Part shown: piece after piece, positions 1,849 to 55,560 of the stretch
Numbering within the stretch: the first letter of the stretch is position 1
Layout: every line of letters begins with the position of its first letter
NCBI GenBank assembly: GCA_052390615.1
Contig: JBQTGT010000012.1
Coordinates: 11,690-75,689, forward strand
DNA length: 64,000 nucleotides
Source: Actinomycetota bacterium
GTDB taxonomy: Bacteria; Actinomycetota; Acidimicrobiia; IMCC26256; PALSA-610
Reading direction: 5' to 3'
Notes under the pieces: generated by a model
The model's input: only the letters and a program-made list of their open reading frames with translations
Told to the model about the DNA's origin: nothing
The model's database searches: none
Translations under genes and position numbers: made by a program

Positions 1849-1867
1849 GACGCTGCTGGGGTCCGCG

Positions 1868-1912
1868 TGTTTGTACCTGGCCGGCCGCTGTGCGGCCATC
1901 CAGGTACAAACA
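1868..1912. terminator. Bidirectional intrinsic-terminator-like hairpin between convergent genes
   Basis: TGTTTGTACCTGG (1868-1880) pairs perfectly with CCAGGTACAAACA (1900-1912). An inner GGCCGC/GCGGCC stem is present. The stem base is A/T-rich on both sides. Confidence 0.65.
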
Positions 1913-1931
1913 TCTCGGTGCCGGGTTCGCG

Positions 1932-14123: not shown

Positions 14124-14200
14124 CGCCCAGTGCACAAACTGATGGGTATCTCACGCACCGGAGCGGTGCGTGAGATACCCATGTGATGGTGCACTGGGCG
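14124..14200 (+). terminator. Long two-tier hairpin after the ABC operon
   Basis: The outer stem CGCCCAGTGCAC (14124-14135) pairs with GTGCACTGGGCG (14189-14200). The inner stem is a perfect 19 bp, ATGGGTATCTCACGCACCG (14142-14160) with CGGTGCGTGAGATACCCAT (14164-14182), and the loop is GAG. Confidence 0.6.
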
Positions 14201-21398: not shown

Positions 21399-21502
21399 GG
21401 CTACCAGCCTGCCAGACTGCCGGGAAATCCGGGATCGGGGTTGATCCGGCCCCCGACCGCACGGCGAACATGCGGTGGGACCGCTCGGCATCAGGAGGAA
21501 TC

Positions 21503-22072
21503 ATGGACAGCGTTGCCCTGCTCCAAAAGGTGATCGACGAGACAACGAGGGTCGTCGACAACATTTCGCCGGCGCAGCTCATGCAGCCGTCGCCGTGCGC
21601 GGGGTGGGCGGTCCGCGATGTGATCAACCACATCACGGGCGGCGCCACGATGTTCGCGATCTCCGCCGAACAAGGCGCTGTTCCGGACGAAATGATCGGC
21701 CAGCTCATGGGCGGTGACAACATCGGCGACGACCCGCAAGGCGCGTTCAAGAAGGCTGCCGACCACGCGTTGGCCGCGTTCCACGAGCCTGGTGTCCTCG
21801 ACAAGATGGTCACGCTGCCGTTCGGGACGATGCCCGCGGGTATCGCGTTGAACATCGCCGTCTTCGACGTCGCGGTGCACGCGTGCGACATCGCGCACGC
21901 GTCGGGCCAGAAGATCACCGACGACGCCACCTTCACGATGGCGCTCGGAATCGGTCAGGAGATGGTCGGCCCCGACCTGCGCCAGCCGGGTGTGTTCGAC
22001 GCCGAGCAATCCGTGCCGGCGGGGGCGACGATCCAGGAACGCCTGCTCGCGTTCGCGGGCCGCAAGATCTGA
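21503..22072 (+). CDS. DinB-like / mycothiol-dependent maleylpyruvate isomerase N-terminal domain protein (TIGR03086-like)
   Basis: AGGAGG lies 5 nt upstream of ATG 21503. The product contains PCAGWAVRDVINHITGG and a C-terminal ...IQERLLAFAGRKI. Confidence 0.8.
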   Translation: MDSVALLQKVIDETTRVVDNISPAQLMQPSPCAGWAVRDVINHITGGATMFAISAEQGAVPDEMIGQLMGGDNIGDDPQGAFKKAADHALAAFHEPGVLDKMVTLPFGTMPAGIALNIAVFDVAVHACDIAHASGQKITDDATFTMALGIGQEMVGPDLRQPGVFDAEQSVPAGATIQERLLAFAGRKI

Positions 22073-22093: not shown

Positions 22094-22138
22094 ACCTGCG
22101 CCGCAAAACCCGGATAGTTCCCGGCTTGCGGCGCAGGT
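22094..22138 (+). repeat. Conserved hairpin element, copy A
   Basis: ACCTGCGCCGC-AAAACCCGGATAGTTCCCGGCTT-GCGGCGCAGGT has a perfect 11-bp outer stem. It lies 22 nt after the stop at 22072 and 12 nt from the cspA stop. Near-identical copies are at 46688-46730 and 53144-53184. Confidence 0.85.
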
Positions 22139-22150
22139 ATGCGATGACTC

Positions 22151-22351
22151 TCAGACCACGCGGACGTTCTGGGCCTCGTCGCCCTTGCGTCCCGGGGCAA
22201 CGTCGAACTCGACGGCCTGCCCCTCTTCCAGGGTCTTGTATCCGTTGCCCTGGATGTTCGAGTAGTGCACGAAAATGTCCTTGTCTCCCTCGCGCGAGAT
22301 GAAGCCGTACCCCTTCTCGGCGTTGAAGAACTTCACAGTGCCTTGTGCCAA
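22151..22351 (-). CDS. cspA: Cold-shock protein
   Basis: The 66-aa product [18 protein letters not shown]...DIFVHYS contains RNP1 and RNP2 motifs. Confidence 0.97.
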
Positions 22352-26293: not shown

Positions 26294-26391
26294 TCTTCCT
26301 CATCAGAGTCGCAATTGCGCGCACCAGCGGCACTTTTCTGACTTTGATGTGGGAATCCGACTGGCCCGGGTAGCGTTCCCACCGACGTGAT

Positions 26392-26429
26392 GCGTCGATA
26401 GACTCAAAGAACTTAGGGTCTATCGACGC
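26392..26429. promoter_or_regulatory. Perfect 12-bp inverted repeat GCGTCGATAGAC-N14-GTCTATCGACGC
   Basis: It sits in the 155-bp divergent intergenic region and ends 19 nt before ATG 26449. The spacer TCAAAGAACTTAGG is AT-rich in an otherwise GC-rich context. Confidence 0.4.
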
Positions 26430-26448
26430 CCGACGGACTGGGAGTGGA

Positions 26449-46655: not shown

Positions 46656-46687
46656 GCGCGCATAGTACGTGCGCGCCGCTCCTCATA

Positions 46688-46730
46688 CTTGCGCCGCGAA
46701 CCCGGAACTATTCAGGTTTTGCGGCGCAGG
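46688..46730 (-). repeat. Conserved hairpin element, copy B
   Basis: The minus strand reads CCTGCGCCGC-AAAACCTGAATAGTTCCGGGTTC-GCGGCGCAAG. It starts 21 nt after the sodA stop. The flanks GCAA (5') and GTATG (3') are shared with copy A. Confidence 0.85.
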
Positions 46731-46751
46731 TTGCCGGGAAGGCGGGGTTCG

Positions 46752-47369
46752 CTAGGCGAGCTGGAGGTCGAAGGTGCGGGCGCGGTCGAAGCGGCCGGCG
46801 ATGTCGGACCAGTTGACGACGTTCCAGATCGCTTCGACGTAGTCGGCGCGGCGGTTCTCGTACTGCAGGTAGTACGCGTGCTCCCACGCGTCGAGCACCA
46901 ACAGCAACACGCCACCCTGACCGACGTTGCCCTGGTGGTCATAGATCTGTTCTACGAGCAGGCGTTGCCCGAGCGGTTCCCACGACAGCGCGCCCCACCC
47001 CGACCCCTGCACGGTGGTGGTCGCTTCGGTGAGGAGCCGTCGGAACCCGTCGAAGCCGCCAAAGCTGTCGTCGATCGCGGCGGCCAGCTCACCGGTTGGG
47101 CGGCCGCCGCCATCGGGTGAGAGGTTCTGCCAAAACAGCGTGTGCAAGACATGACCCGACAGATTGAACGCCAAGGTCTTCTCCAGACCGACGATCGCGC
47201 TCAGATCGCCGGATTCGCGCGCCGCGGCCAGCTTGTCGACCGCCGCGTTGAGGCCCTTCACGTACGCGGCGTGGTGTTTGGCGTGGTGCAGCTCGAGCAC
47301 GCGCGCCGAATAGTGGGGCTCGAGCGCGGCGTAGTCGTAGGTGAGGTCGGGGAGTTCGTAGGGCTTCAT
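46752..47369 (-). CDS. sodA: Fe/Mn superoxide dismutase
   Basis: 205-aa ORF with [24 protein letters not shown] and DAWEHAYYL motifs. Confidence 0.97.
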
Positions 47370-52367: not shown

Positions 52368-53059
52368 CGGACCAGCTCCGCGGACTTGAAGCGGCCACTC
52401 GGTGGTCGCTCGTCGATGAGCGCCACGAGCGACGGAACCACGGACTCAGGTGCGGGGCGGTCGGAGATGTCCTCGCCCGGGAACGCATCCTGGTGCATCT
52501 GCGTGCGCATGTCACCGGGATCGAACGTGTACACCCGGACATCTGGTTCCTCGGCGCCGAGCACGATGCCCCACTGCTCGAGCGCGGCCTTCGAGGACCC
52601 GTAGCCGCCCCAGCCTTCGTACGGCTCGACCGCGGCATCCGACGTCACGTTGACGATCGTGCCGCGGGTGCGACGCAGGAGGGGGAGCGCGCGTTGCACG
52701 AGCGCGAGCGGTGCGACGACGTTGACGTCGTAGACGGCGCGCAGCACGTCGATCGGGTAGTACGCCAACGGCGGCTGCGGCGACGGGCCGAGCACGCTCG
52801 CGTTGTTGACGAGGAGATCGAGCCGCCCGAACTCCTCGGCCTCCTGCACGAGGGCCTCGCGGTGCTCGGCATCGGCGACGTCGCCCGCGATCGCGCGCAC
52901 GGTCGTTGTGGTCGCGAGCTCGGCGGCGACATCGGCGAGGGGGAGCCCGCCCCGAGCGTCGAGCACGAGCGTGCATCCCGTGCGGGCCAGCTCGCGTGCG
53001 ATCGCGAGGCCGAGGCCGCGGGAGGCGCCGGTGATGAGGGCAACCGGGCTGGTGGTCAT
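52364..53059 (-). CDS. SDR family oxidoreductase
   Basis: ATG 53059 has GGAAGGAAGGAGG upstream. Contains ALITGASRGLG, NNASV and a YGSSK catalytic motif. Track ORF 52364-53155 is over-extended. Confidence 0.9.
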   Translation of the reverse strand: MTTSPVALITGASRGLGLAIARELARTGCTLVLDARGGLPLADVAAELATTTTVRAIAGDVADAEHREALVQEAEEFGRLDLLVNNASVLGPSPQPPLAYYPIDVLRAVYDVNVVAPLALVQRALPLLRRTRGTIVNVTSDAAVEPYEGWGGYGSSKAALEQWGIVLGAEEPDVRVYTFDPGDMRTQMHQDAFPGEDISDRPAPESVVPSLVALIDERPPSGRFKSAELVR

Positions 53060-53143
53060 GACGGCCTCCTTCCTTCCCCGCAGTATCGCCCCGCCGCCCG
53101 AATAACGCAAGTAAGACCTTGCGATATTGAGATGGCCCCAAAC

Positions 53144-53184
53144 CTGCGCCGCCAACCGGGAACTATCCGGGTTTCGCGGCGCAG
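53144..53184 (-). repeat. Conserved hairpin element, copy C
   Basis: The minus strand reads CTGCGCCGC-GAAACCCGGATAGTTCCCGGTTG-GCGGCGCAG. It starts 29 nt after the acyl-CoA dehydrogenase stop (53214). Confidence 0.85.
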
Positions 53185-53213
53185 CTATGAGCGGCGACGG
53201 CGCGGGAAGCGTG

Positions 53214-54419
53214 TCAGCGCTCGAGCTTGAGGGCGCGGTCGGCGATGATGTTCTTTTGGACCTCGGTCGGGCCCGCGCCGATCGTCGTGTAGCGCTGCCA
53301 CACGTAGTTGCGGGCCCAGACGCCGCCGTCGATCGCGCCCGGCGCGCCCTTCAACAACGTGCCCGTCGGGCCGAGGATGTCGAGCGCGAGCTCGGCGAGC
53401 CACAGCGAGATGTAGCCCCACTGCAGCTTGGCGAGCGGAACCTCGGGCCAGCCCTTCTCGCCCTTCAGCACCTTGGACAGAGCGCGCGCGAGCAACAAGC
53501 GCGTGTACTCGATCTGCGTGTGCAGCCGCGCCACTCGCTCGCGGATCGCCGGGTCGCGCAGCGCGTCAGGGTTCTCGGCCTTCGCGGTTTGCAGCAGTCG
53601 GCGAAGATCCTGCGCCATCGAGATCGCCTGGCCGGCGCTGCCGACACGCTCCTGACCGAGCGCGCCCATCGACACCAACCAGCCGTTGCCCTCGTCGCCG
53701 AGCCGATCGCCGGCCGACACCTCGACATCGGTGAAGAACACCTCGCAAAACAGCGAGTCGCCCGTGATCTCGCGAATCGGCCGGATGTCGATGCCGGGCA
53801 GCTTCATGTCCACGATGAATGCGGTGATCCCCTCGTGCTTCACGCCGCGCGAGATCGCAGTCGGGTCGGTGCGGAACAGGAACAGGCCCCACTTCGCGAT
53901 CTGCGCGGAGGAGATCCAGATCTTCTGACCGTTGACGACGTAGCGCGAACCGTCGTCGGAGAGGAGCGCGATGGTGCGCAGGTTGGCGAGGTCGGAGCCG
54001 GCCTGCGGCTCGCTGAACCCTTGGCACCAGTGCTCGCTCGCGTCGAGGATCCCCGGAAGCCAACGCGCTTTTTGGTCGTCGGTCCCCCAACCGATGATCG
54101 ACGGTCCGATCTGCACGATGCCGTTGGCGTTGTAGATGCCGGGCGTGCGGTACTTCGCCATCACCTGGGTATAGATGACTTGCTGCGCCGTCGTCGCGGC
54201 GCGGCCGCCCCACCCCTCGGGCCACAGGATCGCGGCCCACCGACCTTCGTTCAGTTTGTGTTGCCACGCCTTGCGCTTGTCCATCACGCCCATGACACCG
54301 CGCGACGGCTCGAGATCGTCGTCGGACCACTGCTCGACGAAGGCGGGCAGCTCCTTGTCGAGGAACGCTTCGAGTTCGTCCTTGAACGCGACGTCCGCGG
54401 TCGACCACGAGAAGTCCAT
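53214..54419 (-). CDS. Acyl-CoA dehydrogenase family protein
   Basis: 401 codons from ATG 54419 (MDFSWSTADVAFKDELEAFL...). ...CQGFSEPQAGSD... and ...GQKIWIS... motifs are present. Track ORF 53214-55070 is over-extended. Confidence 0.93.
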   Translation of the reverse strand: MDFSWSTADVAFKDELEAFLDKELPAFVEQWSDDDLEPSRGVMGVMDKRKAWQHKLNEGRWAAILWPEGWGGRAATTAQQVIYTQVMAKYRTPGIYNANGIVQIGPSIIGWGTDDQKARWLPGILDASEHWCQGFSEPQAGSDLANLRTIALLSDDGSRYVVNGQKIWISSAQIAKWGLFLFRTDPTAISRGVKHEGITAFIVDMKLPGIDIRPIREITGDSLFCEVFFTDVEVSAGDRLGDEGNGWLVSMGALGQERVGSAGQAISMAQDLRRLLQTAKAENPDALRDPAIRERVARLHTQIEYTRLLLARALSKVLKGEKGWPEVPLAKLQWGYISLWLAELALDILGPTGTLLKGAPGAIDGGVWARNYVWQRYTTIGAGPTEVQKNIIADRALKLER

Positions 54420-54426
54420 AGTGAAA

Positions 54427-54442
54427 CTGACATTAGCGTCAG
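54427..54442 (+). promoter_or_regulatory. Dyad CTGAC-ATTAGC-GTCAG (copy 3 of 3)
   Basis: It occupies the centre of the 43-bp gap between the divergent acyl-CoA dehydrogenase genes. It ends exactly 20 nt before ATG 54463 and starts 7 nt after the minus-strand ATG (54419). Confidence 0.5.
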
Positions 54443-54462
54443 GTCGAGATACCGTTTTCCCG

Positions 54463-55560
54463 ATGGACTTCGTCTTTTCCGCCGACCAGGACGCGCTGCG
54501 CGCCGCCGTCCGCAGCTTCCTCGCCGCGGAGTCGCCCAAGGCGTACGTGCGCCGGATGGCGGAGCACGACGACGCCGGCATCACGCCTGCCGTGTGGGGC
54601 CAGATCGTGGACCTGGGGTGGACGGGCGTGCTCGTGCCCGAGGAGCACGGCGGGCTCGGCCTCGGTTTGGTCGACGCCGTCGTCGTGCAAGAGGAGATGG
54701 GCCGGGCGACGTTCCCAGGGCCGTACTTCTCTTGCGCGATCCTCGCGACGCTCGCCGCGCGCGCGCTCGGGTTGTCCGACCGGCTCGTCGCGCTCGCGGC
54801 AGGACGCGAGCGGGGCGCGGTCGCGCTCGAAGAGGCGGGAAGCGGCGATCCCGTCGATCGCGTGCGCGTCCGCGCCGAGGGGCGTGGTGCGCGCCACCGT
54901 ATCGAAGGAGTGAAGCCGATCGTGCTCGATGGGCACACGGCGGATTGGGTGCTCGTGCCCGCGCGCACGCGCGAGGGACTCCAGACCTTCCTCGTAGAAG
55001 CGCCCCCAGCCGAACTGGTACCGAGTCTCGACATCACGCGCAAGTTCGCGCGCTGCTCGTTCGACGGCACACCCGCGCTGCTGGTGGGGCCACCCGGCGA
55101 TCACACCGCGACGTGGCGGCGCATCGTCGACGACGCGGCCGTGCTCCTCGCTGCCGAACTCACGGGCGTGAGCGAAGCGGCGAACAAGAGCGCGCTCGAC
55201 TACGCGCAAGCGCGCGAAGTGTTCGGCCAGCCCCTGTCGAAGTTCCAGGTGACGCGCCACAAGGCCGTCGACATGCTGCACAAGATCGAGCTGGCCAAGG
55301 TCGGCGTGCACTACGCGGCGTGGGCCTCCGACGTCGACGCGCCCGACCGCGCGGCCGCGGCCGCCATGGCGAAGTCATACGCGGCCGAAGCGGCGAACTA
55401 CATCGCGGCCGAGTGCATCCAAGTGCACGGCGGCGTGGGGTTCACGTGGGACTGTGACGCGCACGTATACCTCCGCCGGGCGAAGGTCAATGACCTGCTG
55501 TTGGGCGACCAGGCGTGGCACCGCACCCGCGTTGCGGACGAGTATTTCGCGGCGTTGTAG
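54463..55560 (+). CDS. Acyl-CoA dehydrogenase family protein
   Basis: 365 aa from ATG 54463 (MDFVFSADQDALRAAVRSFL...), with C-terminal ...ECIQVHGGVGFTWD.... Track ORF 54175-55560 is over-extended. Confidence 0.9.
   Translation: MDFVFSADQDALRAAVRSFLAAESPKAYVRRMAEHDDAGITPAVWGQIVDLGWTGVLVPEEHGGLGLGLVDAVVVQEEMGRATFPGPYFSCAILATLAARALGLSDRLVALAAGRERGAVALEEAGSGDPVDRVRVRAEGRGARHRIEGVKPIVLDGHTADWVLVPARTREGLQTFLVEAPPAELVPSLDITRKFARCSFDGTPALLVGPPGDHTATWRRIVDDAAVLLAAELTGVSEAANKSALDYAQAREVFGQPLSKFQVTRHKAVDMLHKIELAKVGVHYAAWASDVDAPDRAAAAAMAKSYAAEAANYIAAECIQVHGGVGFTWDCDAHVYLRRAKVNDLLLGDQAWHRTRVADEYFAAL

Follow-up and report, generated by a model that had tools for sequence, protein, structure and literature searches.

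A palindromic repeat found mostly behind stop codons in a genome of the Acidimicrobiia, and its likeness to REP and TRIT elements

INTRODUCTION

Short hairpins that recur almost unchanged behind the stop codons of different genes raise the question of what they are: terminators, sites recognized by a protein, or copies of a dispersed repeat. Canonical terminators are scarce in Actinomycetota, and neither the means by which REPs, TRITs and Rickettsia palindromic elements (RPEs) spread nor their action at mRNA 3′ ends has been settled, least of all in that group. REPINs are mobilized by RAYTs (PMC3116915). REPs lie mostly behind ORFs, in gaps that separate convergent or co-directional genes, and also inside DnaE2 and repair genes, and the CGTC super-family of REPs has no dedicated transposase (PMC3733652). 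TRIT is a palindromic, bidirectional element found at gene ends in Mycobacterium in 147 copies (Gardner et al. 2011, PMC3152330). Few Term-seq ends coincide with it (bioRxiv 10.1101/2022.06.01.494293), and its two-site cleavage pattern is suggestive of RNase III, of which it is a probable substrate (PMC13714241).

The repeat described here adds a further example to a known class of small bacterial repeats and is not a new type of signal.

THREE HAIRPINS IN THE WINDOW

The window, the whole 64,000 nt stretch of DNA that was analysed (G000:C12:11690-75689), is part of a draft genome (G000) of an uncultured soil actinobacterium, of 3.41 Mb and 68 % GC, which is in 101 contigs and is 100 % complete by markers. 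The pattern CTGCGCCGC-N18-28-GCGGCGCA has exactly three matches in the window, with 0 expected from 100 shuffles. No strand is assigned to any of the three, and the genes around them were identified using Pfam. Copy A (22094-22138; 45 nt core ACCTGCGCCGC...GCGGCGCAGGT) lies 21 nt past the stop codon of an MDMPI_N-domain (MDMPI-like) gene (21470-22072, plus strand) and 12 nt past that of a cspA-type cold-shock gene (22151-22351, minus strand). These genes are convergent, and the copy almost fills the 78 nt gap between them. Copy B (46687-46731) is 20 nt past the stop codon of sodA, the gene for a Fe/Mn superoxide dismutase (46752-47369, minus strand), and its loop is ATAGTT on the minus strand. 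Copy C (53142-53186) is 27 nt past the stop codon of an acyl-CoA dehydrogenase gene (53214-55070, minus strand) and approximately 82 nt ahead of the next co-directional gene, which encodes a short-chain dehydrogenase (SDR; start at 53059). The first-pass annotation had reported three such copies behind stop codons, with copy A between convergent genes and 12 nt from the cspA stop. The pattern search found the same three, with the sequences quoted, 12-27 nt past the stops, and the distance from copy A to the cspA stop agrees.

The three copies are near-identical to one another. Folded on either strand, copies of the repeat give dG values of -27 to -41 kcal/mol (z of -2.7 to -7.4 relative to shuffles). 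The stem had been proposed to be 9-11 bp long and to enclose an interior with a second small stem of its own, but folding gives one almost unbroken stem of 17-20 bp. It consists of a 14 bp outer part (ACCTGCGCCGCAAA/TTTGCGGCGCAGGT), a 1-2 nt bulge, an inner CCGG/CCGG and a 7 nt loop, which reads AUAGUUC or GAACUAU depending on the strand. The two strands of the repeat differ only in the loop and the bulge.

COPIES OF THE REPEAT IN THE GENOME

An iterative nhmmer search of G000 found 34 loci, a number that is a lower bound, as are all repeat copy numbers given here and the absence of transposases reported below, because the genome is a draft in 101 contigs. Scores were nearly equal on both strands, and a covariance model (R1) built from the alignment of the 34 loci (A1) recovers the same set. 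The possibility, raised in the first-pass annotation, that the window holds the only three copies is thereby removed. The repeat is 45-51 bp long, its core has a mean pairwise identity of 88 % (range 69-100 %), and the consensus of the 34 aligned copies is nCnAACCTGCGCC...GGCGCAGGTTnGn. All copies are singletons except for one direct tandem pair (G000:C10:5871-5982), which has a 61 bp period and fills a convergent gap.

Stem positions are paired in 84.5 % of cases, compared with 85.5 % after partner shuffling, and double changes are not in excess. As changes in the stem are uncompensated, the conservation reflects copying of a master sequence and not selection on the pairing of each copy. The 34 copies derive from a common master sequence. 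An RNA motif under selection was rejected for the copies within this genome, as covariation is absent among them. The search of Rfam, which does not contain the TRIT model, returned nothing at gathering scores for the repeat, and the matches by E-value were to miRNA-precursor models that fit any long hairpin and were discarded as meaningless.

POSITION AND ORIENTATION RELATIVE TO GENES

Gene context was assigned with our own GC3-based gene caller (3,035 genes, 88 % coding coverage), which is crude though dependable at this GC content and was the sole basis outside the window. On that basis, 30 of the 34 cores start no more than 40 nt past the stop of an ORF that was judged convincing, 16 of them within 15 nt, and the starts range from +1 to +37 nt. 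The 40 nt zone behind stop codons makes up approximately 15 % of the intergenic bases. The claim that the element always follows a stop thus holds for these 30 copies but not for two that are intragenic, one in a 5′/divergent position and one without clear context. One further exceptional copy is listed at 68 nt past a stop. Many of the intergenic gaps that carry the repeat are scarcely longer than the repeat itself.

The tabulation of position and orientation that had been proposed gave a clear preference for stops, with only 2/34 copies intragenic, and random orientation. In co-directional gaps, the loop is oriented with the gene nine times and against it nine times. That the three window copies all point the same way is therefore due to chance and does not hold in general. 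Overall, the ~40 nt that follow the stop codons of convergent and co-directional genes are almost the only place where the repeat persists, and it does so in both orientations.

In the 34-copy alignment, the 3′ flank is GGT(T/A)(C/T)G and includes at most 2-3 T, so the lack of a U-tract remarked on for the window copies extends to the whole family. The GC-rich hairpin of a canonical intrinsic terminator is present, and the 7-9 nt U-tract is missing. In about eight co-directional cases, a plausible next start codon is found 16-50 nt beyond the hairpin. This short spacing fits a hairpin inside a transcription unit better than a full terminator, though leaderless promoters may be present.

A dedicated, family-specific bidirectional terminator that needs no U-tract, as first proposed for TRIT (PMC3152330) and for I-shaped actinobacterial terminators, would account for a hairpin that is very stable on both strands and for its enrichment between convergent genes. 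Canonical sites are also not enriched in this region of the genome, as a 20 kb stretch of the window contains 8 hairpin-plus-T matches, and shuffles contain 8.1. However, we consider such a terminator improbable. PMC3993855 reports that mycobacterial RNA polymerase needs a U-tract in vitro, and the overlap of TRIT with Term-seq ends is small, as noted above. The start codons 16-50 nt past the hairpin leave scant room for a new promoter, two copies are in ORFs of an essential type that require read-through, the orientation is random, and most gene ends are without such an element.

OTHER PALINDROMIC FAMILIES IN THE SAME GENOME

When hairpins of at least 13 pairs were sought in G000, five further palindromic families, 42-56 nt long and unrelated in sequence, were found. 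They account for 100 copies, and with the present repeat the genome contains at least six families. The further families are F2 (arm CCGAACTGGCGTGACA..., 32 copies), F3 (arm GATGCGTCGATAGACCCTAAG..., 26 copies), F4 (arm ...GGGTATCTCACGCACCG..., 17 copies), F5 (arm GTGTTTGTACC..., 13 copies) and F6 (arm GCGTGGTCACGATTTCGCGCG..., 12 copies), and 82 of the 100 copies are within 40 nt of a stop codon. Three of these families are represented in the window, again with no strand assigned. The F5 copy (GTGTTTGTACC...GGTACAAACA; window 1867-1913, C12:13556-13602) lies 18 nt after the stops of convergent genes, and the F4 copy (...GGGTATCTCACGCACCG-loop-CGGTGCGTGAGATACCC...; window 14134-14189, C12:25823-25878) lies 23 nt after a stop. 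For the F3 copy (GATGCGTCGATAGAC...GTCTATCGACGC; window 26389-26430, C12:38078-38119), the gene caller placed no stop close by. Among F5 copies, the inner stem varies with compensation.

Pooled over the six families, convergent gaps contain 48 copies, tandem gaps 75 and divergent gaps 9, where 23, 73 and 36, respectively, are expected from the intergenic bases (chi-square P = 3e-11). Of the 38 pooled copies in long co-directional gaps, 21 are within 40 nt of the upstream stop, compared with 3.3 expected under uniform placement, a count reached in 0 of 200,000 simulations. Structures with dG <= -45 occur in 5.6 % of the windows downstream of genes and in 1.3 % of intragenic windows, and the present repeat is a minority of the stable 3′ structures in G000.

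Because unrelated families share size, symmetry and niche, the factor common to them is structure together with position, and a sequence-specific factor is not needed. The conserved interior and flanks had been thought to imply a recognition site. That argument is weakened by the common descent of the copies, by their uncompensated stems and by the five unrelated families in the same niche.

COPIES WITHIN dnaE2 AND priA

The repeat has been written into DNA at new places, twice in frame in coding DNA, where it adds 15-17 residues. One of the intragenic copies (C4:123914-123958; peptide QPAPQNPVYSRSAAQV) is in dnaE2, which encodes an error-prone DNA polymerase, and the other (C48:67236-67280; peptide VPAPPTGNYPGLAAQV) is in a priA-like gene, identified with Pfam, downstream of metK. 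The QPAPQNPVYSRSAAQV peptide is absent from 119 DnaE2 homologues, in which the site is a hypervariable linker. In the out-group families represented by G026, G029 and G030, the linker consists of 1-3 codons between two conserved flanks. In the family to which the window belongs it is 130-190 nt long and rich in hairpins, and in G000 its first 45 nt are the present repeat. These represent an empty site in the out-groups and a filled site in G000. The linker as a whole (G000:C4:123142-124200; loci L233-L253) has apparently been built up from palindrome insertions across the window's family.

At the priA site, G000 has the present repeat, G009 has an F2-type palindrome (CCGAACTGGCGTCG...CGACGCCGGTTCGG), and G017 and G011 have F5-type palindromes. 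There is no clear palindrome at this site in G015 and G003. In the closest PriA (79 % identity), the orthologous site is CAACCTGCGCCGAAGACTTCCCTTACAGGGAACAATTCGGCGCATGTTCGG, which has the same outer arm and a wholly different interior that is still self-complementary. Many metagenomic PriA homologues read E-P/L-A-W/S...T-P-V-R here, which, going by the genetic code, would be the in-frame translation of F2-type arms, and this was confirmed at the DNA level for G009 only. What is most unusual about these repeats is that different families recur at identical positions in priA and dnaE2.

The priA linker, which lies between the 3′-DNA-binding domain and the helicase core (G000:C48:66916-68634; loci L133-L158), is a recurrent landing site across the Acidimicrobiia, and in homologues it reads EPAW...TPVR, ELAS...TPVR or TVWT...VQTV. 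In three draft genomes (G010, G030 and G028), the contig carrying priA breaks near the linker, which may represent assembly failure at a repeat.

DISTRIBUTION IN RELATED GENERA AND IN DATABASES

Model R1 gave few and weak matches in 40 relatives from the same family and order. These are variant hairpins, TGCG(C/T)C...CCCGG-loop-CCGGG...G(G/A)CGCA, in which the middle of the stem is altered on both sides. An exact pattern for the outer stem found no copy in 185,579 species, each represented by one genome, and the 32 matches were single unrelated hairpins or coding matches. A stem-plus-loop pattern found no copy in 241 million metagenome records, where none of the 46 matches was palindromic and no strain-level filled/empty polymorphism was seen; records of G000 or of a very near genome may have been left out of both scans. 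On the sequences searched, the repeat family is thus restricted to this lineage, but elements of this kind, and some of the outer arms, are common across the bacterial family.

Related genera carry families of their own, some of which have the same outer arms (CGAAC-CTGCG-YC) and an interior that differs yet stays self-complementary. In 400 kb of G019, which is from another genus, such families are at stop codons, one with the arm GAACCTGCGTCAG... and one that is related to F3. The outer arm CGAAC(C/T)(T/G)GCG(C/T)C is common to the present repeat, F2, elements in G019 and G009 and the element in the closest relative, whose interiors differ.

Shared outer arms of this kind could be read as the half-sites at which a dimeric protein binds DNA, be it at a palindromic operator or at a site for a nucleoid protein, gyrase or a recombinase. 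In favour of this, the element has perfect dyad symmetry, its outer arm is common to several families and genera though the interiors are not, and E. coli REPs bind gyrase and IHF (background in PMC3733652). We think this very improbable, as five families with unrelated arms occupy the same niche, the copies lie at the 3′ ends of genes instead of at promoters, the continuous 20 bp arms are far above the length of an operator half-site, and no candidate protein is linked to the copies.

Outer arms that are kept across genera while interiors are swapped, and different families that are repeatedly at the very same nucleotide positions, including the linkers of PriA (replication-restart helicase) and DnaE2 (translesion polymerase), allow a more speculative suggestion. 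The Acidimicrobiia may, though we think it rather unlikely, have a RAYT-independent way of writing or overwriting long palindromes. If so, this would point to an unrecognized enzyme or to hairpin-templated copying that is coupled to replication or repair.

The 3′ ends of three genes were compared between genera. Behind recR (22 genera), a long palindrome was found in G000 and one relative, and behind purC (19 genera) it was found in G000 only. These are lineage-specific gains that reflect no conserved need. Behind sodA, palindromes of different families are present in about 7 of 15 genera, namely the present repeat in G000, an F2-type in G009, an F3-type in G015 and others in G004, G026, G013 and G031. 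The hairpin finder misses bulged stems, so that these ortholog counts are under-reported, and the sodA hairpins of G000, G009, G015 and G004 were read by eye. Some sites are thus occupied time and again, as would be expected if insertion favours them or if a palindrome is beneficial behind highly expressed monocistronic genes.

MOBILIZATION AND RELATION TO KNOWN REPEATS

Six-frame searches of the whole of G000 found no match to the RAYT/Y1 transposase (PF01797), with positive controls in six genomes, and no match to TnpB (PF07282), with positive controls in eight reference genomes. A classical REP with its RAYT and a derivative of IS200/IS605 were rejected on the absence of both. The flanks of the 34 aligned copies contain no direct repeat, and the A/T that adjoins the core on one side is independent of that on the other. 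In G000, the only solo arm outside the copies is a probable truncated left half copy (ACCTGCGCCACAAACCCGAAT...; G000:C4:240537-240560). A MITE of a resident IS was discarded, as there are no solo arms that would delimit a larger element. As no mobilizing enzyme, target-site duplication or polymorphism between close strains was found, active mobility is putative.

Like REPs and REPINs (PMC3116915, PMC3337134), the elements described here are short palindromes in tens to hundreds of copies, extragenic and behind ORFs, mostly between convergent or co-directional genes, and they are vertically inherited and lineage-specific, with several families per genome. However, the stems of the present repeat are 17-20 bp and those of REPs 5-13 bp, and the repeat has no unpaired GTAG or CGTC tag, with neither motif at either end of the 34-copy consensus, and no inverted doublets, and G000 has no RAYT. 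CGTC-type and intragenic REPs also occur in frame in linkers of DnaE2 and of other replication and repair genes (Di Nocera et al. 2013, PMC3733652) and, like the present repeat, have no known dedicated transposase. The stems of CGTC REPs, though, are 8-9 bp and their loops 4-5 nt; they end in an unpaired CGTC tag and a CCA tail, and most are from Alphaproteobacteria. The present repeat shares none of these features, and in the related variants found here CGTC sits within the paired stem.

TRIT is likewise actinobacterial, approximately 50 nt long, a conserved palindrome that is the same in both directions, present in tens to ~150 copies and tied to gene ends, and it has neither a U-tract nor a known mobilizing enzyme. 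It has been reported in Mycobacterium alone, and it lies around -8, overlapping the stop codon, whereas the cores of the present repeat lie at +1 to +37. The arms of the present repeat were found as a hairpin in no Mycobacterium among the 185,579 species genomes, and on the published description of TRIT the two elements differ in position and taxon.

RPEs (PMC10969869) are similar in behaviour, as they insert in frame and the gene survives with a conserved peptide added to its product, which is what was seen in dnaE2 and priA. They differ in size (~100-150 bp), taxon and sequence, and nearly half of RPE copies are intragenic, compared with 2/34 here. Neisseria DUS terminators, Correia elements and the SPRITE of S. 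pneumoniae (PMC13714241, PMC10969869) are also repeats that double as 3′-end hairpins or RNase III substrates. None of them shares sequence with the present repeat. DUS pairs have a short U-tract and spread via transformation, and Correia elements are MITEs of 100-160 bp with TA duplications.

POSSIBLE ROLE AT GENE 3′ ENDS

The reading we favour, and consider reasonably probable, is that the repeat is a lineage-specific, REP/TRIT-like, non-autonomous element that spread at the DNA level and that probably serves as a barrier or processing site at mRNA 3′ ends and not as a canonical terminator. The original suggestion of a dispersed REP-like element is upheld by the 34 copies, the bias to gene 3′ ends, the lack of a U-tract and the presence of six families. 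As it is located in a 3′ UTR, or separates two genes that belong to the same transcription unit, the repeat would be transcribed, and transcripts of either strand would fold into the 17-20 bp hairpin, which would act most likely via its structure and not its sequence. Such a hairpin could block 3′-exonucleases, or it could be a substrate for RNase III, the cleavage setting the 3′ end. Where it is no more than 15 nt from the stop, it could also hinder ribosomes or polymerases, and REPs within this distance of a stop stall ribosomes (cited in PMC12306157). Genes for RNase III and Rho are present in G000, so mechanisms at the RNA level are at least possible.

It is equally conceivable that the repeat is a passenger tolerated by the host. 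Where the 3′ ends of recR and purC orthologues have no long palindrome, this argues against a needed function at those genes, and a neutral passenger fits it equally well. More generally, the repeat could be selfish or neutral, with its location behind stops arising from an insertion preference, for existing hairpins or for DNA exposed in replication, or from purging elsewhere. Uncompensated stem changes, random orientation, the absence from the recR and purC ends of other genera, insertions in coding linkers and the rapid turnover of families between genera are all in keeping with this, and the 9 of 132 pooled copies in divergent, promoter-bearing gaps are what purifying selection alone would give. 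However, selection against promoter damage is insufficient to explain why 21 of 38 copies, and not 3.3, hug the upstream stop in long co-directional gaps. In addition, a palindrome trails sodA in roughly half of the genera examined, its family differing between them, and the orthologous priA site keeps its palindromy though the interior has been replaced. E. coli REP hairpins in 3′ UTRs influence RNA decay, and by analogy a 3′ UTR hairpin of -30 to -40 kcal/mol would hardly be without effect on decay. On balance we regard a purely selfish or neutral repeat as unlikely, though with a real chance of being correct.

If the favoured RNA-level role is correct, the question posed by TRIT, namely whether it is a terminator, a stabilizer or an RNase III site, extends beyond Mycobacterium. 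G000 is a compact natural experiment for this, with six families in one niche and no known mobilizing transposase, a clean pair of empty and filled sites in dnaE2 and one codon-level site in priA that is held by different families across genera. For annotation, such repeats explain many stable 3′ hairpins and contig breaks in the Acidimicrobiia, as well as odd low-complexity inserts in proteins (EPAW...TPVR, QPAP...AAQV).

OTHER HAIRPINS

Two further sequences in G000 and one in a relative were recorded. A 40 nt unit, GGACAATCCGCGCCCGTTGCGGGCGCGCACTGTCCCCAAA, is arranged head to tail at two contig ends (G000:C42:48504-48578 and C92:2-76). Each unit is itself a hairpin, and as the units have no spacers this is not a CRISPR array. 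Just past the dnaE2 stop codon of a relative (L163:13324-13356), the hairpin GCGGCGCACG-TAT-CGTGCGCCGC contains the octamers of the repeat arms in swapped order, which may be due to chance or may identify a distant relative of the repeat. Finally, a 34 nt mini-hairpin (G000:C7:28935-28968; GAACCTGCGCCGGC-AACA-ATGCCGGCGCAGGTTC) has the same outer arm as the repeat and a short unrelated loop.
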